From NCBI GenBank assembly GCA_019828565.1, contig JAHDYR010000004.1, positions 372,001-436,000 of the forward strand: a DNA stretch of 64,000 nt. The letters are read 5' to 3'. Each line of letters begins with the position of its first letter. The first letter of the stretch is position 1. The translations under genes were made by a program, and so were the position numbers. The DNA comes from Carpediemonas membranifera BICM (lineage: Eukaryota; Protista; Fornicata). The notes below the pieces were generated by a model. It was not told where the DNA came from. It saw only the letters and a program-made list of their open reading frames with translations, and made no database searches. This document shows positions 1 through 36,799 of this stretch, piece after piece.

Positions 1-1
1 A

Positions 2-1004
2 CCCCTCCGAAAGGAGCTGATACAGATCGCCCACAGAGGACACCACGGCGCCAAGGCTACCATCGAACGCCTGAGAGCAGACGGCTATACCTGGACAGGC
101 TGCACAGCAGATGTCGAGGAGTTCATCGCCTCATGTGACGAGTGCCAGAAAGCTCGCCTACGCAACTTCGCCGAGGCAGAGCTCCGCACAACAGCAGTGT
201 ACAAACCGTTCCACACTGTCGCAGTGGATACTATTGGTCCAATCCCGGCAGACGCAGTCGGCTCCAGATACATCACAGTTATGGTCGATATGTTTACTCG
301 CTACACTGAGTTGGCCGCGACGGACGAGAACACAGCTGATGCAGCGTCAGAGGCCCTCTGGCGCCAGGTGATTACCCGTCATGGGACTCCCCTGTTCATC
401 AAGTCCGACAACGGGCCTGAGTTCACCGGCAACGTCGTCAAGGCCCTGCTCGAAAGCGCGGACATCACCCAGCAATTCACCCTCCCCTACCACCCTCAGT
501 CGAATGGGCTGGTAGAGCGTCGTAACGCGGAGGTCATGAAGCATCTTCGCTGTTTGATCCTCCAATTCGACAAGTTCTCCCGTTGGAGCGACCTCCTTCC
601 GGTAGTTCAGCTGCTGCTGAACACAACCACCTGCAGCGCCACTGGGGTCACACCCCACGCCATGCTGTATGGAGACCAACTCGACCCCAGCTCCACAGTC
701 GCTAGAATCCTCCGACCGAGCGACAATGACTCGCCCCTTGCCTCAGCCTCAGCCTACATCACTTTACTTCGAGCCCACCTCTCCAAGTTGACCTCTAGGG
801 CGGCCGAGAAGCAGCGCGAGACTGTAGACAAGCGCCTCGCCAAGGCCAACGCCGACCGCCAGCCGACTAGCTTCAAGGAAGGCGACCTCGTCCTGCTCAA
901 CCGGACGAAGACCCCAAAGCTGCATGGCTTCGCCGGCCCGTTCAAGATTCTCGCCATCAAGGACAACAACACCCTTCAGCTGGTCGACCTTTTCGAGAGC
1001 GCCC
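2..1004 (+). mobile_element. Ty3/Gypsy LTR retrotransposon integrase, 5' part (HHCC zinc finger, rve core, GPF region); interrupted by a LINE insertion
   Basis: Frame from nt 2 reads AHRGHHG...CDEC, VAVDTIGP, SDNGPEF, PYHPQSNGLVERRN and FAGPFKI. The reading frame resumes at 12322 after the duplicated target site. Confidence 0.95.
989..1004 (+). repeat. Left target-site duplication CTTTTCGAGAGCGCCC (16 bp)
   Basis: Identical 16-mer at 12306-12321. Removing 1005-12321 restores the integrase sequence VDLFESAPFMAHVDQ. Confidence 0.95.
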
Positions 1005-1805
1005 AGTTAAAATGTCCGGTATGGAAAGTTGGAATCACCAACCGGAACAAAGCCAAGCGCCGAGGAATGATAGCCATTGGCGATTCTTTCGAGGTTTATA
1101 GAGCTCAAAACAGAGCGGCGGTGACCTATAGCGCGGAATGCCACATTTTGGTCAATTCAGCATCGGGAGTTCTCCTGCTCGGGGAATACCAGCAGGAACA
1201 GCATAACTCTTTACCACTTCTACCCATAGGGCGCACGAGGCCTCTCTCTAGCCTCCTCGATGAGATCGCCTGAGACCAAGTCAAACGGAAGCGAAACGGG
1301 CCGGTGGCAGAAAACTGGAAGATGCGAGCGCCGGAGGCACGAGCCGTCGCCCTGAAACCACCCTGCCTGCCTTGTATAACCCGCTAGCGGACGGGCGCTG
1401 TGCTTGGGTTGGTTCTCTGTGCTCCCTAAAGTGCACCCTCTGGGGCAACGAAACCCGTATGGGCATGGAGCCCCCGGTGAGCGGTCTGATGGGATATTAC
1501 CATCCAAAAGACCAAGGGAAGCTTACCGCCCGGACGTTCCTCAACCCACAGGGCAAAGAACGTCCAGAGGAGCCCCCAGCAACATGCCAAGGGCCCTCAC
1601 CACTGCAACCAAGCCGAAACCAAGGTATGAACTCATGAATTTAGTAGGAATGACGCGCAACTGGAGGGAAACCCAAATGGCGCCCTGTGGCCGCGCTCCC
1701 CGCTGGGAGAAGGGGAGAATGCCGGGGCCCAGCAACCCGAGTGGTAGGCAGATACCGCAAGGAACAGCAGCAACATGGTCTCAACCCCCATTCAACCCTG
1801 GGTGT

Positions 1806-2584
1806 TTACTGAGGAGTCCCGGCGCCCAGGAACTCCACTGAGGGGCTTCCGTCGGCAAGGAAATGGGAAACCGAAGGGACATACTGCCTAAGGGCCCGCT
1901 CAAGAGCGCCCCTGCTGCTGCGATACATAACCATCTGGGACTGAGAAGTGCGCTGGAATGCCAAAATGGCCTGTAGGTTCTCGACAGGCTGATCCTCGTC
2001 GGTCCCCTCATGGAGCATGTCCACGAAGGCATAGGCACACGAGTGCCAGTCCATGGCGATGCGATCCAAAGTGCTGAGAGCGTCGAGGGCTGACGCAAGT
2101 GGAGCCACAGGCTGACGAACGGTGCGAGCCCCAGCTGGGGAGGAAGCCAATGGCGTGACAAACGGGGCAGCGCCCTCGCCGTTGTGAGGACCGGGGGAAG
2201 CAGGGGACCGGGCCAGCTGGAGGCGGCGGGGGACGGCTTTCCCCTGGAAGGAGCGGAAGAGTCGGCGTTGAGGACTCCTGAGGCCCCATCCCACCAGGTT
2301 GGGAGCAGAGGCGCGGGCGCTGCGGGAGGAAGGCAATGCCAATGACCCGGGGGCAGCTCCTCCACAGAGGACGATGTGGTGGAAGAATCCGACCCCCAGC
2401 CCTCTCTAGGGGTCTGGGGCTCCGCCGCGGCAATGCCTGGGCCTTGGAGGTGATCGGCATGAGGGCCAAGAGGGGAATCAGGTACCTTAGAAGGCTGAAC
2501 CTTAGCTGCGGCAATGCCTGGGCCTTGGTGGTAGTCGCCAGGCGGGCTAATGGGTGTAACAGGAACCAAATGTGGTGAACTCAT
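1806..2584 (-). CDS. Antisense ORF inside the LINE 5' region (Pro/Ser-rich N-terminus, helical C-terminus), probably with one frameshift; function unknown
   Basis: ATG at 2584 in the 1781..2677 frame with an in-frame peptide repeat (DYHQGPGIAAA / DHLQGPGIAAA). The 1806..2342 frame ends in protein-like sequence (LASALDALSTLDRIAMDW...VENLQAILAFQ). Confidence 0.45.
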
Positions 2585-2712
2585 ATTATGGCTACAAGGT
2601 TCGCAACCGACCCCGCATCTCAGGCAATAGGCCACACCTCCCCGCCCCTGCTCGGAAAGGCCAACGTGCAACGCCACAAGGCTATGGTGTGATCAGGTGA
2701 TGGAGCACTAAA

Positions 2713-5700
2713 ATGCACACTCCTCATCCGAGCCACCGGCCGGCAATGGACGCGTTTCCCAGGAACCCACAGGGCGGGTACGTTGCCCGAGCAGAAGATC
2801 TCCTCCCCGAGCATCCCATAGGGCCTCCTCTACGCAAGGAGCGCACGAGAACCGAGAAAATCGCCGACTTGATCCGGATGTACGGCGACCTAAAAGGGTA
2901 TAGCAAGATAAAGGATCCCTTCCCCCCAGGAGTGGATCACCAGCTACAGTGGTGGCAGAATCCCAGCCGAGAAAGGGAAATAACGGCTACCCAAATGCTA
3001 GAAAATGACATCCTGCTATACCACTACGCCCTGATAACCGGAAGGCCATGGTGGGTAAGCCAGGCGGCCTGGAAAATCCACCGCGAGGACCAACAGCGCC
3101 GGCCACTGCCCCGATGCGGGCCGGCCTTCGTGATGTTCACCTCCAAGGCCGATTACTCCCTGACCCCGGGTTTCCCAGCCTACGAGCGCCGGCAACGGCG
3201 CCTACAGGCGAGGCGGGCAGGGAGGGCTCTTCCCCGGGGGATTCATGCCGACTTTCCCCCTCCGACTTTTCGAGACCAATTTCGGCCACAAACACAAAGT
3301 TCCCCCAACAAGCCATGGGCCGGGGGAATGATGTAGACGAAGCTGGAACAGAGCTCACCAAGCTTGGAAAACGCTTAGCTACGACCGAAGAGTGGCAAAA
3401 AGTCCGAAGAGCAGCCGATTCCATCCTCGCCAAGTGCAACAACACCACAGTGATCTTCTCGAGGGATAACGCCGCCAACTTCAAGGTATCAAGCCCGCCA
3501 CCGGCTAGATCCTTGCTGTTCGAGCTAGTTGCCAGCACTCTCAAGGCCGCAGGTCACCAAAGCCTCACAGGGCCTGGGATCAGGACAAGGTTCGGCCAGC
3601 AGAGCGCCGCCTGGCTCCTCAAGGCAGGCGGCCAAGCCACAGCCGGCTCAGCGAAAGCGCCAGGTGCGGACAGAGCCCACAACAACGTCAACAACAAGTG
3701 GGCGGCCCTAGGTCGGGCCTGGGAGGATGCCCCCGTCCCCCTTAGCCCCAGACCCCCAGCAGGAGGCTTCCCCCCCCTTGACGGACAGGCCGTCAAGCCC
3801 TGGGAAGGTGGCATGTTCTCCGCGATAGCTGTCTACAGCAGGACCGATGGGGTGACCAGACCTGTGTTGGTTAGCAGGACACCCACGGATTCAGCCCTCA
3901 ACATTGCCGGCGACGAGCTAGCGCGCAGTGAGGCCGAAGACTTAGTGCTTCGCTGGACGGTTCCGGGCTTCAAAGAGCTGTGGGCCGCATGGGATACTAC
4001 TACCCGGCCAATGCCGGCCCCTGAGTTCATCCACCCGGACCTCTGCGACGCTTCCACCCTCGTTAGCAGGATCGCAAACATCTGGATGGCGGACCAGGGT
4101 ACCAAGCTGCTCGCCACCGAATCCACAGGGGACGGCCCGCCCAAGGGCAACGAGCAAACCGACAACCCACCCCACGAGGGCAACCCGGTCACCCCCCACC
4201 GAATAATGGCAGAGCAAGTGCAGGTGATAGCCCGCCCAACGGCGGCCCAAGGACGGACCCACCCACCAGGGGCAACCTGGGCGTTGCCCCGCACAACGGC
4301 GGCGACCCGACCACTGGCCAACCCAACATGGGCGATCCAGTCGCCCCCTCGTTCATTGGGGGCGAAGCAGGTTGGAACCCAACTAGCGGGGGGAACCCCG
4401 CCACCATGCCCAGCGGCGAAAGTGCGGGCTCGGAGACCGGGGGTACCCAAGATGGCCCCCGGCCCAACGCCGACGACTCGGCCAGAAGAGTCCCTGGCAG
4501 TGATAGTGACGTCAACCCGCCAAGGGGTAGAGAACTGTCAGCCAACAGCAGACTCCCCCCGTCCTGCCCGCTCACCAACCCGCAGGGCAAGAGGATGCTG
4601 ATCGGGTGCATTGACTTCGAAGCGTCCAAACCCGCATCCAAGGCGGGGGATGAGGCCGTCATATGCGAAGGGGCGGTCATAGTCTTTGACCCCGCCAACG
4701 GGAATATCGTCGCCAGTCTGCACGGGATGTTAGGCGAAGATATTCGGGTGGCCGACCTCGACCAGGCTCTGATGAGCTCAAGAATTCTCCACGGTTGCCC
4801 CCCAGCCACCTTCGTCGACATCACCACTGGGCAGGCCCCCCAGGGATTCGAAAGCACATTCCCAAACAGCACCACATGGTGCGCGGAAATGATCGATGCC
4901 CTCCGGCGTCTCGAAGGACACCATAACGCGTTCATCCACCTGACTGCCAAAGGGGTGGAAGCTGAACGAAGTGTCCTCACGAGCGCCAAATACGTACCGG
5001 ATTCCACGGCCAGGGCATGGGTAGCCACCCACCTAATCGATGAAGCCGGCCTAGATGCGGTGTACCCCCGTCTCAATAGCACCCTCACCCTCTTCTACCC
5101 CCCCTCCCAGGAGGACCGCCCGGTCCGAGAGACCCTCCCACAGGAGGACCAGAAGGCAGCCGAGCAGGCCAAGGTCTGGACCCGCGACCAGCAAAGGAGA
5201 AGGGAACCCAAGGGGCTGTGCCCCTATCACAGAAACGCACCAGCCTACTGTCACTGTGCGCTTGCGGATGTATCGCTCTTCTACACAAGACTCTCCCTGG
5301 CCATCCACATGCTGTATAACCCGTGGACCTGGGCTGATGTGGGAGCGGAACTAATCGCACGAGGAGGGGAAAGTGACGGGGGCACAAAGCCCCATCATTA
5401 GAGTAGGACACGGGGTCCCAGACCTGGCTGTAGAGATCAACCGCCATAGAGGGCGAGAGGTCATCACACCCCTGGGGCAACTACAGCACGTGATCTTTAC
5501 CACCAAGCCGCGTCCGAAGGAAATCCACATGGCCAACACGACCGCGCAAGAGTTCAGCACAGGAAAAGGAATCCTAAGGGTCCTTGAAAGGAGGGGCGTA
5601 GCCGTTCTCAGCCCGGACTCCTGCCCAAGCACGAGACCCCTGGTCGTGGAGCTCCTATCCGAGTGGAACGGTAGGCGCCGCGTAGCAAGGGAGAAGGGCT

Positions 5701-7049
5701 ACTGGCCAGACTTCTATGGCAACCGTACCACCCTGGACCCCAGGGTCATGGAGCAACTCCCGGTCAAACTCCACCCCGAGCTCCTGACCCTATCCCAGGC
5801 AGCCTCGCTGGTCCCGCTCCATAAGCATGACATGATGCATGGGGGCTCAGCCCAGCAGCTGAGACACCGGCTCACCCACTGCCTGGTGAACATCGGCGAT
5901 AGAGCACCAGCGGGCGTCCCGAAACTCATCGTAAGCGCGGAACTCCGGCGCCAAGATAGAGGGCCCAGGCATTATGTCAACTTCTTCCCCTCGGTTCTTC
6001 CCCTAGACTGGGGCATCCGCACAGTAGAACAAGGAGGGGAGCCTGGAAGACGCCGCCCGAGCGCCTTGGGCGAACCCCAATACGACGGCACCCTGGCCCT
6101 GGGATGCAGTCCCATGATGAGACTACCCCCATCCGCCTGTGGGACTTCCCGTACACCCAGAACAACGACGGGCACAGGTCGCAGCGAGAGCAAAAGAGGC
6201 TGTGACCGCGGCAAGGGCCGCGCTTAGAGCCTGCCTCGAAGAGCACCGGGAGAGGCTCACCAACGAGATTCACCAAGGCATGGAGTGGCCGGCCCTAGGG
6301 CTGCTTGAGGGCCCGCTCACCGAGAACCGACAGGTCCCCACCCCGAACCCATCTCAAAGGAAGGTGAACGCCACCCCCTCCCCCAGCAGGCTCCAAGGGG
6401 AAACAAACCCCACCCCCAACCCGCGCCAGGTAACCCCCGCCCACCCCACCCCAAGGGCAATCATCACCCCTAATGCGCACCAGGTAAGCCCTGCTTACCC
6501 CACTCCCAGAGGAATGAACCCCCCACCCGGCCCCGGGACAGGCGATCCTCACGCCTCACAAAGAGGCCAACCCCCGGCGATGCCTCTGAGCCAGGCTTTC
6601 GAGCACCGGCCCCCGCCGGGCGGCCCCGAAGGGAAGAGGCCCCCAAACCCAAGACTGGGCACGGTCGATCAGATGGGTGCCTACATCCAAGCCCTCTTCC
6701 AAGCGGAGGTGGAGCGAAGAGCTGAAGAAGAGCGGCAGCGGATCATGAGCCATTACGAAGAGGAAGTCTCCCGGCTGAACAACGAGGTTGCCCACCTCCA
6801 AGGCCAGCTGGCCAAGGAAAGGGAAGCCCTAGCAAGAGGAGCGAGCGAGCGCCAGCGCCTCCAGCGCATCGCCGAGAAATCGGAGGCCTTCAAAGAGCCA
6901 GCCTCAGGCTCCGTGAAACAAACAGAGTCCTCGAGGCCAGGCTTGAGGAGGCGCTTGCCGCCGCCAACGGAAGCGACGAGGAAGAAGAGCTCCTACGCAT
7001 CGGAATGGAGCACGAGAGCGACGAACCAGATCAAGAGATGCATGAGTAA
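2713..7049 (+). CDS. LINE ORF1 region: overlapping frames (2713-3336, 3048-4601, 4328-5401, 5373-6227, 6139-7049), probably one ~1400-aa frameshifted protein or several ORFs, ending in a Pro-rich repeat and a coiled coil
   Basis: Successive + frames overlap with no gaps. The C-terminal coiled coil (EVERRAEEERQRIMSHYEEEVSRLNNEVAHLQGQL) continues in another frame as LRETNRVLEARLEEALAAANGSDEEE...MHE*. Confidence 0.6.
4595..5290 (+). CDS. DEDDh-type 3'-5' exonuclease-like domain with ECHC zinc motif (Maelstrom / arenavirus NP C-terminal domain-like) within the LINE ORF1 region
   Basis: Motifs in order: CIDFEA...ICEGAVIVFDP...SRILHG...TAKGVEAERSVL...CPYH-x7-HCALAD. Recognised by eye; no HMM was run. 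Confidence 0.7.
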
Positions 7050-7775
7050 CGAGCCATACCAAAGCAGTGGAGGGAAGAGTGCAGAGTCTAAAGGGATGTG
7101 TATATATAGCACGTTAGTGTAGGACTAGGTGAAGTGAAGGCGCCGGAATAGGTGCAGCGTTGGAGCCCGCCAGAAGGGCTGTACTGGCGCCAATGCCCGG
7201 GTGACTTTTCTTTTCTTAAAACCCCTGTTCCCCGCAGGGACCGGGGGCGGGTAAGAGGCAGTTGGAACGCCATCGAGGACCCGCCTGTCCGGCAGGCTGG
7301 AACTCCAGCCTTGGGAGGGGCGCCGAAAGGAGTCGCTCCCACCTATGCGTAGTTAGGTAACGATGCTGCCAATGTGCGAGGCCAGAAGCGCTATAGAGAC
7401 TGGCACGAAAGTCCCGACAAGCACCGCGAGGGCGCGGCCAGTGAAAGGGGTGGTACACCCTAGGTCAGCTCCAAGAGGGAACCTGGGCCACGTCTGGGGA
7501 CTCTGGAGGAAGCAGCCGTTCTGGCCAAGCACCCCATGTGAATGGCGCATGCTTCTGGGTCCTGGAGAAATATCAAGGGCAAAGAAGACGCCTACCCGGG
7601 CCGCCCACCAACAACCCACAGGGCGGGAAGCGGCCCACCCAACGTGCTAAACAACGACGACATAGGCGCTCACCCATTGGGAAGGCAACTATGCAGATGC
7701 TAAACCCCAACAACAAGATGAAAGTGTGCAGGTAGTGCAGAATAAGGAGTGCAGGTTAAGGCAGTAACAACCTGA

Positions 7776-10700
7776 ATGCGAATAGTCTCCCTTAACAGCC
7801 AAGGACACTTAACGGGCAATGAAGACTACAGCGGATCTATAGCGGTAGCGCTTCGCAAGCACACGAGCCCGGACGCCCTCCTCTTGCAGGAAACATTCAG
7901 GTACGGTAACTCCGTAGTCCCCTGTTGGGCGGACCTACAATACGCATGTGCAGGGCACGCCAAACCCATCAAGGCTCGAAAGGGCAAGATTAACCTAGGC
8001 GTAGCCACGGTGATCAGCCCACATTCACAGGCAACCTGGGATGTAGGAGTATCTGACGGCACGAACCCCCGAGTTCAAGTTAGCATCCTCGAAACCTCAA
8101 GGGCTATCGCAGTCATCAACATATACGCCCCTCCAAGTGACCGCAGCGCAGCGGAGCTAGACCGCTTCGACCAACAGCTGGAAAACATCGTCAGAGAGTA
8201 CCACGGCTTCGAGATAATCATCATGGGGGACTGGAACCGTGACCCGCGGAGCCTGCGCCATGCCACCAGCGCCACACTACAGCGAAACAATCTAGACCTA
8301 GTTTTCCCTCGTCTCACACATACATGAGTGGGAATACCACCTCGACGCTGGATTATGCAGCTGTATCTGGGGGGGATCACGAGGGCCAAAGCTAGAGTCA
8401 TTGACAAAGCTGAGATGGGGCATTGGGGCTCCCCCCATAGGGCAGTGGAGCTAACCTGGGACGAACCGCATTGGAAGAAACAACCGGCCAAACCCAAGCT
8501 GGAAATCCCAGGAACAACCACCTGGAATGTCCTCCCAGAGCGCAACGGGGAAAGGGCAAGGGAATGGCCGCAACCCGATGTGGAGCTCCATGTAGATACA
8601 ATCGAGTACCAAATACGGGAACTCTTATCGGTGGGATTTCAAACTTCCGCTAGGAACGTCAGACCAGGGAGATCGCAAAAAGGATCCCGGAGAACGTATG
8701 GAAGCAACTCATCCTAGCCCGATGGAACAAAGCGGGGGCCGCGGAAATCAAGCGGACCCTGAACAACGAGCTCCAGAAGTCATGGAAAAGCTTCAAGGAG
8801 GAGTGGACGCAGCAGGTGGAAAACAGCGCAAGGGCAGGGTATAAGACCACCAAGAAGGTCATAGCAAACCAGGTCCACAGGTTCTGGAACGAGAAACAAC
8901 ACGCAGGGCTACCGGCGATGCTCAGAGGAAAGAGGTCGATCTTAACAAGGGAAAACGAGATAGCTAGGGAGCTGCAGAGGCAATACGCCCAAGTCAGTAG
9001 TGGCATAGCACCTAGTTGGGACCAGATCCCGGCGGCCCAAACAACTGATCAACCCCCCACGGAGGAGGAGGTCACGGCCGCCATCAAGTCCCTGAAGAAA
9101 TCATCGGCAGGAGGCCCGGATGGTATCACGGGCGAATGTCTGAGAGACCTCCCCCAGGCGGCCTACAGGGCAATCACATGCCTCTTCCAGAAAGTATACG
9201 AGTCTGGGGAACTACCCACCACGTGGAAGTACGCCTCCATCTCCCCGATACACAAAGTAGGGAAAGATAAGCTACTGCCAGGATCCTACCGACCCATCTC
9301 ACTCACCCCCCTCCTCTACCGAGCATATGGGAAGGTACTCAAATGGAGGCTCAAACCAACAGTTGAGAGGCACACCCCCAGAGAGCAGATCGGCTTCATG
9401 AAGGGAAAGACAGTCATAGACCACATCGCCCTCCTAACCCAACTGCACCAAGAAGGAGACCGGACCAGCGTGCTGCTCGACATTGCAAAGGCGTACGACA
9501 CGGTTCCCAGGGACATCCTAGTCAGCAAGCTGATCAATATGGGTGTACACCCCCACCTAGTCAGAGCAGTACAAAGCACAATGGAGAGGACCTACATTGC
9601 GGTAAGGGGATCCGACCTATGGTCCGAAACGAACCTAGGAGTCAAGCAAGGTTGCGTGGTCGCCCCCACCCTATTCATACTATTTACGGCCAACTGGATT
9701 AGCCAGGCGTCACTCAGAATACAGTACGGCGAGATACCAGACCCGAAGCTTCCCCCCACCCACCACAGACCCGGGAATGGCATCATAGCAATGTTCGTAG
9801 ACGATACGAGCATCTCGGCAAAGAAAGAAAATGATGCGGAGTCCCTCACCGCCGCAATGGTGGAAGTGATAGTGGCACACAAGCTGTGTATCAGCCCAGG
9901 AAAGAACATCGTCATAAGTACCAATCCAAATGCGGAAGTGCGAATTCAAGGGGAGGCCACCCGAGCAGCGGAGTCAGGCCGATACTTGGGACTCTGGATA
10001 GCAAGTGGCCCTCATCCGCTCAGCGCATGCATCGCAAAGAAAAGAGAACAGTCGAACAAGTACATCGCCCTCGCCCGGAGAGTGGGATGGACTAAAGGCT
10101 CCACGCCCGCGGCTGTCTCCGAGTCCATCCTCCGCACCTTCCTATGGCCAAAGATCGAATTCGGAATCGAAATCTGGGGCCAAGTCCCAGGAGGCAGAAG
10201 GCTTTGGAACGACTGGCGAGGACTCATGGCGGGAACCGGACCCGGTGGAGGGGGTGTCGCCCGCCTGATGATGGGATGGATGTGCTGGGAAGCGGACATG
10301 GGTGTAAGAGCGGTTAGAATCCGCGAATCGGCCCGGGACCCTGACCGCCCATCGCCCCTAGCGGACTTCGACTGGGGAAGAGCGAACCCCAAGTCCGTTA
10401 TCGGAAAGCTGAACAAGTGGGCAGACAACGTACTAGATCTGGCCCCTAGCGACCTTCACGGACCCAGACCCAGAGCAATAGCCGGGGGATGGAAGATGAC
10501 AGCACGAGACATCGCCACCAAAGGTAGCCGAACAGCCAAGGCGGCCGCCGAAGTGCTAGCTGCGGAGGCAATGCAAACAATGGCAGGCGGGAGAGCACCC
10601 AAGAAACCAAAGATTATCAGAGGGGAGATGATGCTCAGGAGGGAGCTGAAGAGGGTAGTTGCAACAGCCTCCAACACGCTCCCCTCCGCTAGCAACAGCC

Positions 10701-11146
10701 ACACAACTCGAGGAGCCGCGCTCATCATAAGCAGGAGGTACCCTGGGCAGGAAATGCTCTGCGACCGTATCCAAAGAATATGCCCGATATGCACACTCGC
10801 AGCCGAACGCGAATTGATCAACTACCTCCAACTATACCCCCCCCAGGCGCAGGCGCTAGTGGCAGTAGCCGGGTGGCTGGAAGACCAACCGCTAGGAACA
10901 CAAAGCCACATCATAGCGGAGTGCCAGGGCGTCGGCCGCCCAAGTGGGTGGGAGCAGTGCTGGGAAGCTGCGGCAACACACACCATGGCAAGTAGGCTGC
11001 GGCACGGCCCAGATGGGGAGTGGTATAACTCCAGGGCCATATTGGAGCTCCACTGGCTACTGCAACAGGAGGATGAAACAGTGAAGGAGGGTCTATTATG
11101 CGGGAAAAAGGCCCTCATGAACCTCAGAACAGGCCCAGACCCCTAG
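7776..11146 (+). CDS. LINE ORF2: APE endonuclease, reverse transcriptase and C-terminal CCHC knuckle (frameshifts near 8315, 8370 and 8650)
   Basis: APE motifs: RIVSLN, LLLQET, INIYAP, IMGDWN, TLDY, GSPH. RT motifs: AGGPDGI, YRPISL, QIGF, LDIAKAYD, GVKQG, FVDD, RYLG. C-terminal CPIC...HIIAEC. Confidence 0.93.
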
Positions 11147-12305
11147 GAGGAAAGCCCTGGGTGAAGACAAGGCACAGGGCGGAACACTCCTGGAACCGGC
11201 GGGAGGTGTTTTCCCCCCACATGTTCCGGTAGCGCCCGGCCGCACACCCAACCCAACCCACGCAGCAAGGGGAGCACTCTGATGCCTGCATCACACTTGA
11301 AACAACTCCCCCACCACCAAGAGGGGACAGGCCCAACCCACAGGGCGGCCTGGAAAGGTGGCCCGAGCACCGACCCCAAGCGCAGCGGGCCCGGAACCAA
11401 TGAGGACAACACCACATGTTCCGGTAGCGCCAGGCGGAGGGAAGGCTGCAAAGGACCACTAAGGGACAATCGCATACAACAAGCACGAAATAGGGAAGGC
11501 CTGGCAAAACAGCTGGGCCAGTAGGGCGCAAGCGTCCGGACAAGCAGTCCGGCGCATCCCTCCGGCGCGCAAGGGGTACCCCCTCCCCACACAGTGGGGG
11601 CGCACCAGGAGGATGATGCATGGCAGACTGGCGGAGGTACTGGATGACGCAAGAAGCTACCCACTCCGTCGGTAACCTGCCGGGAAGGCAGGGCCATCCT
11701 GATGTGGCCCGGCGCCTAGCCAGGAACACTGGAAGACGTGGCAACCGCCCCTGGGAGCTCCCCCCCGATAATGGGAACCTGGAGTGAAATCGGACAGCGC
11801 TAGATGAGCCCGAACGCAGCCGGCAAGTCCGTGGAAGTCTACCTACGCGGCGTCGGTGGGTTCCTAACCCGGCCCAGCTGGTACGGCGAACTCTAGACCC
11901 GACCCCGCCCTGGCGGGTGCCTGAAACATGGCGAGCGGGTCGAGGAAACTCCAGGACCTCCCTAGGGGACCCGGGGGAGAGGGGAAACGTACGGAAGGTC
12001 CCTGACAGCAGCGTGCAGGGCAAGGCTTTGTAGGTGCCAGGCAGACCTGGGACCCAAAGGGCCCCTAAGAGTAAGACCTGGGTTAGCCTAACTTTGGGGG
12101 TATTAATGTGGCCATGTATAGGATCCCTCTAGCGTACCAGCTAGGCCTTGACGGCCGTTGTTCACGCCCTCTTAGGAAGTGTTAGGTGTGCTCTGTAGAG
12201 GTACCAACACGCTTAGGCGTTCCTCGAAGGGGTGACACAAACTGTGACATTCAGCTTACACAGCAGGACGAGTAGCAGGACACATTAAATTCTTTCTTCT
12301 TCTTT

Positions 12306-12321
12306 CTTTTCGAGAGCGCCC
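12306..12321 (+). repeat. Right target-site duplication CTTTTCGAGAGCGCCC
   Basis: Identical to 989-1004; immediately follows the TTC-rich tail. Confidence 0.95.
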
Positions 12322-12593
12322 CCTTCATGGCTCACGTAGACCAGGTCCTTCCTTTCAACACCAAGTCGGGGCTCAGCCGCCTGAAGAACCTCGCCGCCTC
12401 CGACGAGCAGACGTACGTCGTGCAAGGCATCGAGAAGCACCGTCGCCGCAACGGCACACTGCAGCTCCTCGTCTGCTGGGAGGGCGACTACGATCCCACA
12501 TGGGAACCCGCTGACGGGCTCCGCCACGTCACTGCGGCACGTGACTACCTCAAGTCCCACAAGCTCAAGCTTAAGGGGGGTAGGATGTCATAA
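12322..12593 (+). mobile_element. Gypsy integrase C-terminus with chromodomain (chromovirus-type), then polypurine tract and start of the 3' LTR
   Basis: YVVQGIEKHR...LLVCWEGDYDPTWEP is a chromodomain. AAGGGGGGTAGGA (12573-12585) is followed by TGTCA at 12586. Confidence 0.88.
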
Positions 12594-17357: not shown

Positions 17358-18408
17358 TCAACTATGTAAACAATGGGTAGGACCCTGACAGCCCTTTTGG
17401 GCGATAAAGTAGTCCTTGATGCGAGTCTTCAGACAAATGGGGCACGTCTTGATGTGCTTTTTGACGTCCAAGAGCATCCCCGGCCAAAATGCAGACGCGG
17501 CGAGTGCTTGGAACGTTGAATTTGCTCCCGTATGAAATTGGTGAGCGGTCCGTAGGGCCTTGTCGCGTGTCTCTCCCTTGGGGATAATCGGCACTCCGTC
17601 CTTGAAGTAGATCGAGTTTTCGATGGATACTCCCTCTAGTTTCTCCCAGCCGACTCGAGTTGACTCAGGTGCCATGGCCTGGGCAGCCTGGATCAACTCA
17701 AGGGTCAGCCCTGGGCCGGCGTCCTCCGCCTCTAGCAGGTTCAGCTGCGGCCCGAGGTCCCCTCGGGGAAGGATACGCGACAGCATGTCTGCCATCTTGT
17801 TTGTCTCTCCAGCAATATGCTCGATCGTAATGTTGTAGTCCGACAAGACAGACGTCTACCGGAGGAGTTTCTTGGAAAGCTCCTTCCTCTGCATGAGATA
17901 TACCAGATTCTGGTGGTCGGTGCGGATCTGTATGTTGTCCTTGAGGCGGAAAAGTTGAGCCATGCCAGGTCTCGTGAGACAAAAGATGATAGCATGAAGC
18001 TCTTGTTCGTAGGTCGGCCACCTAGTCTGGGTTGGCGTATGACACTTTGCGAAGAGCGAGACGATCTCTCGGTTGCCGGAGTCGTCTTCTTGGAACAGAA
18101 TGCCCCCTAGTCCGTCGTTCGACGCGTCCGTCTCGAGGGTCCACTTCTTTGAGAAGTCGGGGAAATGGAGGACTGTCCGAGCTGAGTCTCTCCTTGAACG
18201 TTGTAAACGCCTCTTCTTGTTTGGGGTTCCAAGTTATGTTCTTTGAGTTCTCCTGTGCCGTTAGCATCTCGTTGAGAGGTTTGAGGATTCGTGATGAGTC
18301 CGGGACGAACTGGGCGACATAGTTGAATGATCCCAGTGTCCTCTGAAGCTCCTTTGCGGTGGACGGGAGCGGTATGGCGTTTACCGCCTCTACCTTCTCT
18401 GGGGCAAG
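17358..18408 (-). mobile_element. Ty3/Gypsy pol fragment (RT thumb, RNase H, integrase zinc finger), frameshifted
   Basis: PEKVEAV...LGSFNYVAQFVP, ETDASNDGLGGILFQ, HIAGETNKMADMLSR, AHQFHTG...CPIC. Confidence 0.9.
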
Positions 18409-18409
18409 T

Positions 18410-20130
18410 TGTTTCCCCAAGATATGGACAGATTGGCAGGGCATCATGGCCGGAACAGGCCCAGGTGGGGGCTCGGTCATGCGCATCTTGAACGGATGGA
18501 TGGACCTGCAAGCCCACCTGGAGATGCTAGCAGTCAAGAGGATCGTGACAAGCAGGGGCCAGGATATACCAATCAGAGACAGGGTCTGGAAGGAGGGATC
18601 GATTATGTGGAAAGCCAGGGACTCAGTGAACGCACTCCTCAGAGGAACAAGAGAGGGAGCAACGAATGCAGGGAAGATAGCCTTTGGTAGGGAGATGGTA
18701 AGAATGAACTGGACCAGGAGGTGCAAGAGCAAGACAGCGGTGGGGCTCATGGAAGTCCTAGGACCCAAACGTATGGGAAAGTGCATGGCGGGGAAACCGG
18801 CCATAAGTAGGAAGACAGGGAAGTGGCAGTCAAGGGCAGAGTGGAAAAGGATAGTGTCGGTGGCAGCGAATGTCAGCCCGTCTCCATCATCAGCGGAAAG
18901 GGGAGAAGGCCCAGAGCGAGCGCTGGCGGACCTGGCGATGGGTGAGGAACTCAAACACAAGATACAAAGGAGGTGCCCCCTGTGCACAAAGGAGAGCGAG
19001 ATAGAGTTACTGTGGCAAATAGCGAGAGAGCAGCCAAACCAAGCCAGGAAGCAGGCACTAATCAGGGGAGTGGGTAAGGGGTCAGCCGCTGGGATCGGCG
19101 GCCCACATTATGTGTGAGTGCCCAGAGGTTGAAAGAGGAGATGACTGGGAAAAGATATGGAAGACAGCTAAGGAGAGGACCAGGGAATTGCAAGTCAGAA
19201 GAGGCCCGAATGGGAGGTGGTATGAGAAGAGGCCAATCTTAGAGGTGCAACAACTAGTGTTAACAGGGTCGGAAGAGATATGGGAAGGACTGCGAGCTGG
19301 GCTGAGAGCCCTGGCAAAGGTCTATGATAGCTATAGAATAGATGGATAGATAAGGAACACCAGATCCAGAAAGGGGGCAGGGAAGCATAGACTCTGGGAT
19401 CAAGGGGAGACCCCCCATGTTTCCCAGGGAGAGGGCAGGGCCAGGGACAGAGGAAATCCATCAATTGGATGGTTGCACCACTCGCGGTGAACCTAAGGAA
19501 ACTGCAGGGACTGAGCATGGGATACGGGGGGACATGACGTCCCCGCCGCCCTTGTGAACGATAGAGGGACGCTGGGAAGTGTAGCACAAGAGAACTATCA
19601 TAAGGGGTACTAGGCCTTGCAGATCTAGAGTCTGTGTTAGCCCTAGCCCACGCCGCCTAACAGGGGGTAGATGAGAGGGACTTAGTTGCTTTCCCCGCCC
19701 ACGGGTAGGCCACTTAACAGGGTCGTGGGGGCACTGAACAGGGAATCTGGAAAGATGAGAGGGTGCCATGCTTGAACGACCCCGTAGGGACTGCAGGGAA
19801 TCAGGGAGTGCTATAGAGAAGGTCTTGCAGGACAAACCTGCCTGTGGAAGCACCGAGGACAGACCCCCAGGCTCCCTGGAAGCTGCCGGGTTTACAGGGA
19901 GACAGGAAAGCGCTCAGCGCACGGAGATGGCGAAGGCCAATGGGGGGAAGTGAAATCGGGAGTGAGCGGAAGCAGTAGCACCGAATCGCTCGTTGGACGC
20001 AGCTGACAAGTTCAATCGCAGGGAGGAGGCAGCGCCCCGGGGAACTCGGCTCCAGTAATAAGGGAGATCAGCCTAAGTAACCGGGGCCCGATACCAGGCA
20101 CCATAAATTTTCATTTTCTTCTTTCTTCTT
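18410..20130 (+). mobile_element. 3' portion of a second, divergent copy of the TTC-tailed LINE family (ORF2 C-terminus, 3' UTR, tail)
   Basis: KIWTDWQGIMAGTGPGGGSVMRILNGW aligns with RLWNDWRGLMAGTGPGGGGVARLMMGW of copy 1. Also shares IQRRCPLCT and RRGPNGRWY. Ends in TAAATTTTCATTTTCTTCTTTCTTCTT. Confidence 0.9.
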
Positions 20131-23070: not shown

Positions 23071-23144
23071 GGGCGGTTGGCTCAATTGGATAGAGTACCT
23101 GACTACGGATCAGGTGGTTGCAGGTTCGAGTCCTGCATCGCTCG
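23071..23144 (+). tRNA. trnR-ACG: tRNA-Arg (anticodon ACG), intronless
   Basis: Full cloverleaf: GGGCGGT/ATCGCTC acceptor, GCTC/GAGT D stem, CCTGA-CTACGGA-TCAGG anticodon arm, GCAGG-TTCGAGT-CCTGC T arm; followed by TTTT. Confidence 0.97.
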
Positions 23145-23417: not shown

Positions 23418-26383
23418 TTACTCACTCACAATGTCCTGCCCAGCAGCAGCCGCGCGTTCGCGAGCAGCTTGGGCTTGTGTCAGCCAATCCACGATGGCTC
23501 TGCACTGCCACTTCCAATTGGCAACGAAAACCCGGTCCACGAGACGATCCTTGGCCGCGTTGTCCAGCAGCTTCATCTCGACCAGCCTCTCTGGCCAGGG
23601 CACACCGCCAGCCTTCCAGGGCGCGCAACGGCCGCTCGAACTGACAACAGCAGGCACCATATCAACGTTGAAGTGCTGATACTGCTTCACCTTATCAGCC
23701 CGCGCGTCGGAGACGTAGTCCGAGCAGACGATGTCAATGACGGGTTTCACACCGCCCTCGTCGGGCCTGACTTCGACGTCCATGCGCACTCTGTACGGCC
23801 GCAAAGGATGCTTCGCCTCTGCAGACTTCGGCGTCAGCCACCTCTCAGGCCTGGCTGCCACGCCCTCCTCCTTGAGGGTCCTGATCACTTCGTCCCGGAT
23901 GGCGTCATGCCGCTGCACCTTTGCGTCACCGCGTAGGCACGGGCACACCACCGCGTGCGACCAGCCCTTCATAGCCACAGTACGACTGTGCTTCTCAGAG
24001 CAGATCGGGCACACTCCAGCCGCGTCGCTAAAGGCGGGCCGGCCCAGGTGGTCGGCGATCATGGCCCGGTCGACCTCGTGGCGGTTCGACTGCCTCGTGA
24101 CAGAGACTGGGTCGGACTTGAGCATAGCGCTGATGATGTTGGGCGCGACGACGCTGTCCTTCACCGCAGGGTTGGTGTTGAAATTATGTTCCTTCAACAG
24201 GCACACCAACTCGTGCTGCGGCTTGTCCTTGCCGACCGCCTTCAGCGCTGCCTCATCCTTGGGCCAATCCTTCACGTTGGCGCCCAGCGCGAGGACCTTA
24301 TCCAGGTCGGGCCGGCTGAGGCCAAACTCCAGCAGATGCCGGGAGGCCCCCAGGTAGGCGGGAGCCCAGACATCGAGCGGCATCGGCAAGCCGAGACCGC
24401 CCGCATGCACCGGCAGCCCTAGCCGCCGGCAGAACTTCTTCATCTCTTCCGCATCGGTGATCTTGTCTTGCAGGATGTCCAAGACGGCTGGGGCAATACA
24501 CTGCCGTTCAAAGACGGCCGTCTTGCCCAGCAAATTGCCCTGGCCTGTGGTAGACTTGATCGTGGGGAGAACGTTGCGGTAGAAATGTATGGGGATGGTG
24601 AGCGCAGACACCCTGACAATCGTCAGAGCCACCGCCGTGGCCTTCGACCCGATCTCCCGGCAGAACTCCTTGGCGGCGTCGAGCACGGCCTTCACCTTCT
24701 TCAGGATCTTGGTACAGCACTCAACGTGGAAGGCTGAGGAGACGGAGATGGGGATACCCACCAGCTTGAAAGACTGCGCCCGCGTCACCTGGTCCGAAGC
24801 GTTGTTGTCGTCCCGCGACTCGCGATGAGCGACCGCACACTTGGACCGGTTCAACGGCATCCCAACACTCGCAAAGAGCTGCTCCGACCGAGAGACGAAT
24901 GAATTCGCCTTCCGGCCCGTCTCGTAGTCTTGCAGGGGGCTCGGGATGGACGCCGAAACGTCATCCTGGTATCCGCGAACAGTGAAGTCCGGGAATTCCC
25001 CGCGCAACTGCGTCAGCAGAGGAACATGCCCAGCGAGAAGAGGAGTGGGGAGAGAGGATCACCCTGGTGGATGCCCTCCTCCGAGGCCCACACCTCGCCA
25101 GTCGTCGTCAGCAGCAAGCCGCTGGCGTACATTCGGCGGAGGTAGGGGCCGAGTACGGGAATATATGCCTCGACCACCTTCACGAGATAATCTCGGGACA
25201 TCGTGCCATACGCGTTGGACATGTCCAACGTCACGATGGTGCTCCCGTTCATGTACTCGTTCAGCGTGGCCGTCGCCAGCCGCTCCAGGCCGGCTGATTC
25301 GCCAAGCCCGAATTGGTCCCCCATCAACTCATCCTCGACGACAAGCCTTGGGAAGACGACTGTTGCGGCGACCTTAGCCGCCAGCCGGCGCAGCACCTCG
25401 CCTATTGCGACAGGGCGGACCCCACCGCAATCCTTCGGCACCGGCACCAGGATCGCGTGTGCGAAGATCGACGTGTACTCCTCACCGTCCAGGATGTCCT
25501 GCAAGACAGGCTCCAAGGCGGCTACGAGGTCTCCACGCCTCACGCTCGCGGCAATGCGCAGGTGTAGCGCTGACAGGCCCGACGGTCCAGGGGCGGATTC
25601 CGGCGAAAGGCTCATGAGTGCGGCCTTGATCTGCTTGCGCGAGACCGTGATGGCACTGAGCGGGTTCGCCGGCACGTCGGGGAGGGATATGTTCGGCACA
25701 AGCCCTGTCGGAGAAGACAGCTTCTCCTTCAGAGACTGATTGATCTCGTCAGGCGTGAGGGTCGTCTCCGACCCCGTGATCGTTGTCACTGCCTTGGAGA
25801 TGAAGCCACGTATGGCCAAGTTCCACGCGCGCCTTGTGCGGTTGGCTCTCGGCCTGCGAGCCGAGACCTTCGGGGGTGCGTACAAGCTTATGGGTGTCGA
25901 CATGACTAAACGAGACCCAATATATAATGTATACGCGACACTACAGATGCGGTCCCTCGACGGGTGGGGCTCGGCCCGAACCGATGCTGCGAAACGCTCA
26001 GCGGTGCCGTCCTCGTAGTTATCCTTGATAAGCAGGTACTGAATCCGGGTGAAGAGCTGCTGCTCGATGTCGTCGATGTCAAGTCTCGGTAGGTCGTCGA
26101 TGAGTTGGTACAAGAACTTAGCCTTGTTGGAGAGACCCTTGGATGTCGGCATGTCGAGGAAGAGGCCGCGGTGCGCTGGAGTGTTGTTAGAGGGAGCATC
26201 GGCCATCTCCACGATGGCAGAGCGTTGCATGGCAAGCTCTTGGGATAGTTCTTCGATTCGCTTGAGGAGAGTGGCGGCCAACGTGTTCTCGTCCTGCTGT
26301 TGGGGGTTCTCATCCTGTTGTTGATCATCTGGTGTTGTTCCTGGTTGCGTCGGGCGCCCCGCGTCCGAAGTCTCGTCGGCCAT
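23418..26383 (-). mobile_element. CRE-clade-like non-LTR retrotransposon: RT, CCHC and restriction-like endonuclease (one frameshift near 25015)
   Basis: SAPGPSG, GVRPVAIGEVLRRLAAK, QFGLG, LDMSNAY, GIHQGDPLSPLLF, GYQDDV, LPVHAGGLGL. RLE region: CPIC...H...C, QRHDAIRD, RMD, VID, KVKQY. Confidence 0.88.
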
Positions 26384-26512
26384 TCGAACTGGCCATCCTG
26401 ATTTGATTACACGACCTGCCGGGACCGGATCAGGATCGTATCATATATTTTGAGCTGTGTAAATATTACGGCCGTCACGCCGAGGTGACACGAGCTGCCT
26501 GTAGTCAGCGCT

Positions 26513-35514: not shown

Positions 35515-36474
35515 CTAGTCCAGCGCGCTGTGCCGTTTTAGGGAGAAGGCGGAGGCGGTCTTCGTGTACAGCCCGTCCCGCATGATGAAGGCAGTCTGGT
35601 CGAAGCACACCGCCTCGAACGCCTCTTGGATGCCGACGTCGACGATCCTTGGGCTCGCGACGACCTTCCTGTTGCCCGAGCTGTCGATGAAGCGGCCGCC
35701 CTCGTCGATGATGACGTATGAGTCTCGCATCACCTCGTTTGTCTCGGGAATCAGCACCGGACTGCCCTGGCGGGAAATAAAGTCTTCAAAGTCCGCCCTG
35801 GTTGGGACGAGGGTGGTCGCCTCGGCAGCCCGCTCGCCCTCAAGTGGGAGCATCTCAAAGGCCTTCCAGCGAGAGGCGCCGAGCTCCTCAACTAGTGCGG
35901 CCATCTGCTCGCCTTGGTTGGCCGACGTGATCACGGTGTTAACCTTGACCGCGATGCCCATGGCCTTGCATGCAGCAGCCAGCTCCCTTGCATGGGCCGC
36001 CACGTCGTATGCAGCGCCCTTCCCATGCTTGGGTCTGAAGCCCATGGTCTCGCACGTGCTAGCATCTGCAGAGTGCAGGGAGAGCCCGAGGATGTCGAGG
36101 GCTGGGGCGGCCTCCCTCAGCCAGGCCGGGGTGAGCTTGGACCCGTTGCTGATGACAGAGACGATTGGGATGCCCTGCTGCTTAGCGTGGCGGATGAGGG
36201 TGAGCAGCTCGGCCAAGAAGAGCGACGGCTCGCCTCCTGAGAAGTTGAGTTTGCGGCAACCGGCCGCAGCGAGGATGTTGATGGTTTTCTTGAGAAGAGG
36301 CACATCAGGGCGCTTAGCAACGCCCATCGATGCCCCATGGAAGCAGAATTTGCAACCGAAGTTGCATACTCGCGTCAAATGGATGTTGACGGAGATGAAG
36401 GGGTTAGGTTTGGCAGCAGATGTTCTGCAGCCGGTCATAATAGCTTGTTTCTTGTTCGTTGATTCAATAGTCAT
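35515..36474 (-). CDS. RSAD2: Viperin (RSAD2)-family radical SAM ddhNTP synthase; start at 36474 or 36438
   Basis: SVNIHLTRVCNFGCKFCFH, KLNFSGGEP, SVISNGS, KVNTVI, RWKAFE, ETNEVMRDSYVIIDEGGRFID, F..RDGLY. Confidence 0.92.
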   Translation of the reverse strand: MTIESTNKKQAIMTGCRTSAAKPNPFISVNIHLTRVCNFGCKFCFHGASMGVAKRPDVPLLKKTINILAAAGCRKLNFSGGEPSLFLAELLTLIRHAKQQGIPIVSVISNGSKLTPAWLREAAPALDILGLSLHSADASTCETMGFRPKHGKGAAYDVAAHARELAAACKAMGIAVKVNTVITSANQGEQMAALVEELGASRWKAFEMLPLEGERAAEATTLVPTRADFEDFISRQGSPVLIPETNEVMRDSYVIIDEGGRFIDSSGNRKVVASPRIVDVGIQEAFEAVCFDQTAFIMRDGLYTKTASAFSLKRHSALD

Positions 36475-36799
36475 CTTTCTTAGTTGTATTGTTTCGCGTG
36501 TGGCCTGGTCACGCGTCGTCGTCACGCGTGGTCAAATCCAGAGATACAAAAGTAGATACACAATTATAAAGCAGCTTATCGCAGCCACTGAAGTCCCTGC
36601 ACCCTTGCCAGCGATTGATCCACGAGCGCTGTCCCAGCAAGCATTCCCCAGTCGGGAGAGGGGTCGCGCATGGACTTAATATGCCCACTCACAGACCTCA
36701 GTCAACCTGCATGCCAACCAGATACACTGTCTCAGGCCGTCGGGATGATTCAATCAGTGGATTACCCTTAGCAGTCTCAGTTGGGAAGAATCACAAGTC

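Follow-up and report, generated by a model that had tools for sequence, protein, structure and literature searches.

Why would a retrotransposon encode a nuclease resembling Maelstrom (MAEL)? The question is raised by a long interspersed nuclear element (LINE) of Carpediemonas membranifera BICM, which lies in the 64,000-nucleotide stretch analyzed here (the window; contig JAHDYR010000004.1, positions 372,001 to 436,000, assembly GCA_019828565.1). An original prediction, made from the sequence alone, had placed a DEDDh exonuclease domain like those of MAEL and of the arenavirus nucleoprotein (NP) upstream of the second open reading frame (ORF2) of this element. We found that the domain belongs to the element family and sits in ORF1 of many related LINEs, a clade whose ORF1 holds a nuclease domain predicted to be catalytically complete and of MAEL type. 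That the LINE uses this nuclease to destroy small interfering RNA (siRNA) duplexes or double-stranded RNA (dsRNA) that would silence it is a reading by analogy, to which we assign a probability of roughly one half.

The Domain Lies Inside ORF1 of a Full-Length LINE

The predicted MAEL-type DEDDh (here DEEDh) domain occupies positions 4595–5317 on the forward strand, and its residues are numbered from the ATG at 4595. Translation of 4595–5401 and motif mapping recovered the whole motif series that had been read there, in one frame: IDFE (4610–4621), ICEG (4661–4672, initially noted as ICE), LHG (4718–4726), AKGVEAE (4946–4966), CPYH (5219–5230) and HCALAD (5252–5269), together with an ILHG (4784–4795). 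A relaxed form of the C-terminal pattern, C-x2-H-x5..20-H-C-x-L-x-D, has a single match over all six frames of the window and none in 100 shuffles of the window by two-base blocks.

A profile built solely from the ORF1s of elements other than the window copy matches the window in order at 3375–4568 (independent E-value, iE, 1.7e-4), 4496–5311 (iE 2e-68), 5508–6491 (iE 8.6e-5) and, weakly, 6421–6993 (iE 0.11). The window ORF1 therefore spans about 3315–7122, that is ∼1,270 codons, interrupted where the frame shifts at three places: near 4270 in a run of G, between about 5320 and 5400, and near 6060–6220. The original prediction was thus right about the position upstream of ORF2, but the frame that it took to stand alone is an internal part of a frameshifted ORF1. 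These breaks may stem from decay or from misassembly of base runs. A programmed frameshift in ORF1 was considered and rejected, because relatives carry single long frames. The change near 4270 is absent from the sister protein P0002 of C. membranifera, in which the window frames 3009–4601 and 4067–5401 are fused into one protein. P0002 is 97% identical to the window over the first 75 residues of the domain; it is probably another copy, since several residues differ, an allele being the alternative.

From a likely start at ATG 3315, as judged from aligned relatives, ORF1 comprises an N-terminal domain (3315–4110, covered by the first profile match), a low-complexity linker (4110–4594), the nuclease, a second conserved domain in another frame (5358–6059, supported by the third profile match and by the alignment), and a Pro/Gln-rich C-terminal part with a predicted coiled coil (6121–7122, with a sub-threshold coiled-coil Pfam match and the weak profile match). 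The predicted model of the domain following the nuclease is unreliable (predicted local distance difference test, pLDDT, 44). Either this domain or the N-terminal one could be a diverged RRM. No part of ORF1 is better conserved than the nuclease, complete domains being 25–37% identical to the window copy versus 9–24% for the N-terminal domain.

A 16-bp direct repeat (989–1004 and 12306–12321) flanks the 11.3-kb element (1005–12305), and the Ty3/Gypsy integrase-chromodomain frame that the insertion interrupts reads on in the same frame across this repeat; the first bases of the 3' copy could alternatively be tail. ORF2 (7776–11146) encodes an APE endonuclease domain (7776–8324; PF03372, E 5.5e-6), a reverse transcriptase (RT, within 8654–11143; PF00078, E 2.9e-29; both in Pfam) and a C-terminal C-x2-C...H-x4-C motif, and is broken by a stop at 8325–8327 and by a change of frame at about 8690–8777. 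The 3' terminus consists of TAAAT followed by a (TTC) tail. With an ORF2 combining APE and RT, a target-site duplication with a 3' repeat tail, and dispersed copies, the window element is a full-length APE-type retrotransposon without long terminal repeats (non-LTR), and the domain does lie within its duplicated target site, as had been proposed.

Predicted Fold and Active Site

An AlphaFold2 model of the domain computed from 12 sequences (pLDDT 72, predicted TM score 0.69) is predicted to adopt an RNase H-like DnaQ/DEDDh fold, and the Foldseek search suggested along with the original prediction returned this fold. The top Foldseek matches were TREX1, ERI1, oligoribonuclease (Orn) and RNase T (E about 1e-4), and neither arenavirus NP nor Maelstrom was among the matches listed. 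When the model was compared with 48,161 chains by VIA-align, DEDDh families reached Z scores of 11–12 (up to 11.8), and RNase T led a second comparison at 12.6. Maelstrom chains from Bombyx scored 11.0 and 10.8 (root-mean-square deviation, rmsd, 3.7; 175–179 residues aligned), and 11.6 in the second comparison, and Drosophila Maelstrom scored 10.8 (rmsd 4.1) with the longest alignment, 186 residues. Arenavirus scores were 8.0 for Lassa NP and 7.4 for lymphocytic choriomeningitis virus (LCMV) NP, and only generic DEDDh proteins were matched in a viral fold library. The fold thus points to the DEDDh superfamily only, so that the sequence motifs decide the family.

The predicted catalytic residues are D7, E9, E124 (Glu for Asp), H220 and D225, which fall in the model on beta1, on the helix after beta4 and on the last helix; the predicted zinc site is formed by E25, C209, H212 and C221. 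Conservation was assessed in an alignment of 21 rows with 13 complete domains, which omits L009 because its sequence is that of L005, and in which P0015, P0019 and P0057 are near-identical. All nine key residues are present in 12 of the 13 complete domains, in line with the earlier view that every catalytic position (D, E, E, H, D) is occupied, and the zinc tetrad is present in all 13. As for the wider EHHCHC set, its first His is found in 11/13 and its second in 5/13 complete domains, and the full set in four (window copy, L005, L006, L008).

Affiliation of the Domain

Based on the ECHC tetrad, we file the domain, with considerable assurance, as MAEL-type and not as arenavirus NP. The double designation originally given, MAEL/arenavirus-NP-like, seems to hold for its first half; the second half was abandoned on the spacing of the zinc motif and on the residue following the second catalytic acid. 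The spacing C-x2-H-x7-H-C-x-L-x-D is the same in Entamoeba MAEL (PMC2628886, supplement 1), and that of the zinc ligands fits residues C290/H293/C302/R306 reported for Bombyx MAEL (PMC4408791), both compared by eye, whereas the two His are separated by 23 residues in Junin NP (4k7e) versus 7 in the LINE domain. An insert of arenavirus NP bears a basic arm, and Lassa G392, directly after the second catalytic acid, is described as the glycine of dsRNA specificity (PMC3429428); the corresponding position is Ala in the window copy and Gly in 3/13 domains.

A kinship with MAEL is also predicted by a language-model search of the Atlas with the L005 domain, in which PF13017 Maelstrom was the best Pfam-bearing cluster (0.89, 173/256 features), followed by Rv2179c-like (0.81) and arenavirus NP (0.78) clusters; two unnamed arthropod clusters (0.94 and 0.90) outrank Maelstrom. 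Sequence and profile searches of the PDB gave nothing significant, the best relevant row being Junin NP at E 0.85. As a separate observation, the unnamed Atlas clusters nearest to the domain are archaeal (455 members, 0.95), bacterial (136, 0.94) and arthropod (110, 0.94), and may represent undescribed MAEL-like families.

Occurrence in Related Elements and Selection

A phmmer search against 1.84 billion representatives yielded 13 matches, 11 of them family members; the other two, P0009 with WD40 repeats and P0013 with PKD repeats, were discarded as spurious. All or part of the domain is carried by 11 gene models named Carpediemonas membranifera, on nine contigs as told apart by their length, and one of these models, P0021, combines the domain with an APE endonuclease (hhalign probability 99.5). 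A motif scan of a metagenome collection added 10 loci, all from one other assembly and all within long ORF1-like frames. An APE(+RT) ORF2 lies directly downstream on the same strand in nine of them, and the tenth (L008) ends before this point. Both ORFs are intact in L003 and L004, for which target-site duplications were not recovered. In L005 and L009, ORF2 is unbroken, and so is ORF1, though cut at the contig end. These two loci are identical over 7,499 nt while their 3' flanks differ, which suggests recent activity, with the reservation that an assembler can homogenize repeats.

The other searches were negative: no homolog of similar length to the window domain protein (P0001) was found by a word-based search, no locus by exact-peptide search of the metagenomes, nothing significant by tblastn against phages and plasmids, and no motif match in viral contigs. 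A single motif match in prokaryote genomes (L011) was set aside as a chance occurrence, as it shows no tblastn similarity to the domain and has a stop inside the match.

The nuclease domain is under purifying selection. The ratio of nonsynonymous to synonymous substitution rates (dN/dS), a check also suggested at the outset, is 0.11–0.15 for the domain in the three pairs among L001, L003 and L004, comparable to ORF2 (0.14–0.19), versus 0.21–0.28 for the next ORF1 domain and 0.37–0.43 for the linker; five more distant pairs gave 0.22–0.36, all these values coming from pairs that are not independent and whose dS of 0.7–2.7 is partly near saturation. Trees of the domain and of APE (10 rows) agree on their main splits, {L001, L003, L004} versus the rest and {L002, L007, L010}. 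In a quick RT tree of 39 rows, built with no curated reference clades, the five domain-bearing RTs and P0022 form one group (SH-aLRT, an approximate likelihood-ratio test, 99), and the RTs of domain-bearing elements are only 21–36% identical to other RT matches. This pattern fits, without proving it, one old capture followed by vertical inheritance.

A side observation concerns P0014 (KAG9395705.1): its annotation, splicing factor U2AF, is likely mistaken, since the protein can be aligned to the C-terminal half of the ORF1s of this LINE family.

A Possible Counter-Silencing Function and Its Alternatives

LINE RNA is coated by multimers of the ORF1 protein that it encodes. In the scenario that we propose, a LINE would have captured, once and long ago, a host nuclease of the RNA interference (RNAi) pathway; many copies of ORF1 would coat the element RNA through their coiled coil, and the nuclease thus brought into place would remove duplex small RNAs or antisense duplexes before they are loaded into Argonaute. 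Catalysis is favored because the catalytic residues are invariant, and we predict an active Maelstrom-type 3'–5' exoribonuclease. Counter-silencing is favored because the relatives studied so far take part in conflicts over small RNAs or dsRNA. Entamoeba MAEL is reported as an active exoribonuclease (PMC4408791). RIF4 of T. brucei is described as occurring only in RNAi-positive trypanosomatids and as being needed to make siRNA duplexes single-stranded, its DEDDh residues being credited in the same paper to a MAEL screen (PMC3359990). C. elegans RDE-10 is likewise described as acting in RNAi, and arenavirus NP as destroying dsRNA with the same fold, thereby evading sensing (PMC3675627). The more specific claim that a metamonad-like LINE clade turned a host RNAi nuclease on the host, by means of an ORF1 coat whose MAEL exoribonuclease erases siRNA or dsRNA, is more tentative, and we lean slightly against it. 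If true, the element would be a retrotransposon counterpart of the arenavirus nucleoprotein, and such elements may have carried the ECHC-DEDDh domain between host silencing pathways and RNA parasites.

Several points weigh against a counter-silencing nuclease of MAEL type. The Entamoeba enzyme degraded single-stranded RNA (ssRNA) when tested (PMC4408791), an activity that would threaten the element's own RNA. The Lassa determinants for dsRNA, the glycine after the second acid and the basic arm, are mostly absent. The counter-silencing reading presumes Dicer or Argonaute in the host, and newly sequenced diplomonads are reported to lack both (PMC11437800). The fold search is not specific to MAEL, as RNase T, Orn, DnaQ and ERI1 tie with it or score at most 1 Z higher, and one complete domain, P0003, has Tyr in place of D7. 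The Pfam search that had been suggested as a check failed to bring support: neither the ORF1 pieces of the window nor their homologs gave a Maelstrom (PF13017) or exonuclease match, and none appeared for 11 domain sequences at E up to 10. The Maelstrom score in the Atlas stays below 0.9, with a recognition of 2236 against a mark of 2300, and counts as a lead only, while the window's own protein retrieved unnamed prokaryotic or Rv2179c-like clusters as its best 30 Atlas matches.

The strongest competitor, possible yet clearly less probable than counter-silencing, is that the nuclease processes the element's own RNA, either following the RT and removing the RNA template 3' to 5' as a substitute for RNase H, or trimming the transcript to a (UUC)n priming end. 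RNase H has no Pfam match in the four ORF2s scanned (window, L003, L004, L005), PF00075 being carried by 7/34 ORF2 relatives outside the clade, and all six 3' ends observed carry a short-repeat tail and no poly(A). Lassa NP is reported to digest the RNA within RNA:DNA hybrids (PMC3429428), and the same idea has been put forward for the DEDDy cargo of rotifer elements (PMC5408684). Yet C. membranifera is reported to encode two prokaryote-type RNase H1 genes (PMC8516963). Moreover, the domain resides in ORF1 and is not fused to the RT. Many clades of LINEs have no known RNase H, and elements ending in repeats function without such an enzyme.

It is unlikely that the domain is instead a zinc-stabilized module binding RNA or Argonaute, either replacing RRM domains or zinc knuckles or acting as a decoy for host Maelstrom. 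Bombyx MAEL does bind ssRNA without cutting it (PMC4408791), no RRM or CCHC match was found by Pfam in eight ORF1s, and the complex of SIWI, PIWI-interacting RNA (piRNA), target, GTSF1 and Maelstrom is among the fold matches; but the five catalytic residues, which metazoan MAEL lost, are kept in 12/13 domains at only 25–37% identity.

Proofreading of cDNA or RNA, which by analogy with the nidovirus ExoN would permit a long (10–11 kb) element, is still harder to credit. Coronavirus nsp14 is a DEEDh form, and the LINE domain shares with it the Glu at the third acid, in an element of 11.3 kb. However, the fold score of nsp14 ExoN is only Z 6.7, the zinc site is of the MAEL kind, and the polymerase protein does not contain the domain. 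Lastly, P0001 alone, which has no Pfam or PDB sequence match and comes from a copy split into separate frames, could raise the suspicion that a host gene or an endogenous arenavirus-like fragment inserted just once, into the window copy; this is refuted for practical purposes by the linkage of the domain to ORF1 in many diverged families from two assemblies (11 gene models and 10 loci), by the main splits shared between the domain and APE trees, and by the absence of the motif from viral contigs.

Other Features of the Element and the Window

The 2.3-kb 5' region of the LINE (1005–3314) contains an 80-nt tandem duplication (2407–2567) and ORFs of 199–303 codons at 2701–3336 (+), 1781–2692 (−) and 1806–2405 (−), for which no Pfam match above the cut-off and no homolog in loci L001–L011 were found. 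At the other end, the 3' untranslated region (11147–12305) finishes with a TAAAT and (TTC)-repeat tail as in L003 and L004, the tail being (TTCA)n in L005 and L009.

LINEs of this group have often inserted into other mobile DNA: in Gypsy integrase-chromodomain sequences in the window (1–1004 and 12306–12590) and in L003 (9887–10657), in an aspartyl protease sequence in L009 (200–1084), and in sequences of a protein-primed PolB and an LTR-type RT in L004 (1–2199). L005, by comparison, has no assigned feature in its flank. Either targeting or, in a genome dense with genes, biased survival could account for this. The window also holds a second, 5'-truncated piece of a related LINE (18347–20130, +), about 24% identical to P0022 and P0023, which ends in the same TAAAT + (TTC) tail and lies between Gypsy gag frames; no duplication was recovered around it. 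A third tail-like sequence, TAAAT + (TTCA), occurs at a gene end at 38978 and may be a short truncated copy or a chance occurrence.

Another RT element (23418–26440, −; RVT_1 E 2.2e-6) extends over two frames and forms a long, distant branch in the RT tree; its C-terminal Cys/His motif suggests a non-LTR element with a restriction-like endonuclease. It adjoins a tRNA gene (23071–23144, +; RF00005, 60.6 bits), which is the sole Rfam match and lies outside the LINE. Finally, an ORF at 35515–36531 (−) contains a C-x3-C-x2-C radical-SAM motif and presumably resembles viperin/RSAD2.

Comparison With Known Systems

Among the literature matches listed, none describes a retrotransposon with a MAEL-type domain; this search did not extend to Repbase, to most subscription journals or to supplements on bioRxiv, and a prior notice is possible. 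The closest likeness is to the MAEL proteins of protists (Entamoeba EHI_192630, T. brucei RIF4), which have the DEDDh residues and the ECHC tetrad, and, in the trypanosomatid rows, a K-G before the third acid as in the LINE domain. The latter differs from them in being encoded by a LINE inside ORF1, in having Glu instead of Asp as third acid, in keeping the second His of EHHCHC in only 5/13 cases and in not being detected by PF13017. Metazoan Maelstrom (Bombyx 5af0/9nhc, Drosophila 4ybg) shares the predicted fold (Z 10.8–11.6, rmsd 3.6–4.1 Å over 173–186 residues), but has no catalytic acids, often carries an HMG box, and silences transposons. Arenavirus NP (Lassa 3r3l, LCMV 4o6h, Junin 4k7e; PF17290) resembles the LINE domain in combining DEDDh with ECHC, in the H-C-A-L-x-D motif and in belonging to a protein with which a genetic parasite coats RNA. 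It differs by a lower fold score, by the basic arm that the LINE domain lacks, and by the specificity glycine found in 3/13 LINE domains.

Among retroelements, bdelloid LTR and Athena/Terminon elements also carry a nuclease of the DEDD superfamily as cargo, in a DEED variant (PMC5408684). That cargo, in bdelloid LTR and Penelope-like Athena elements, is an RNase D-like DEDDy enzyme in a separate ORF3, whereas the domain described here is predicted to be DEDDh/MAEL and is inside ORF1. This 2017 paper describes DEDDy exonucleases as previously unreported in retrotransposons and mentions Maelstrom as a comparison only. APE-type LINEs with accessory enzymes, such as the esterase in ORF1 of CR1/L2/RTEX or the viral SF1 helicase of insect R1/Jockey elements, share the two-ORF layout with a captured enzyme, the APE-RT ORF2, the repeat tail and the target-site duplication, with a different enzyme; for the viral helicases of insect LINEs, weak silencing suppression has been reported (PMC6338049). 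VANC proteins, which are anti-silencing factors, also figured among the literature matches listed.

Maelstrom-family proteins are host silencers of transposons, and a predicted catalytically complete form inside the structural protein of a transposon would place this family on the other side of the conflict. Non-LTR retrotransposons would gain a new type of ORF1, and the ECHC-DEDDh domain, otherwise at work in host RNAi and in arenaviruses, a third context, which bears on the origins of Maelstrom and of the arenavirus exonuclease. With L003, L004 and L005/L009, relatives that are unbroken and seem young, the proposal that a LINE counters silencing by means of an enzyme becomes directly testable.

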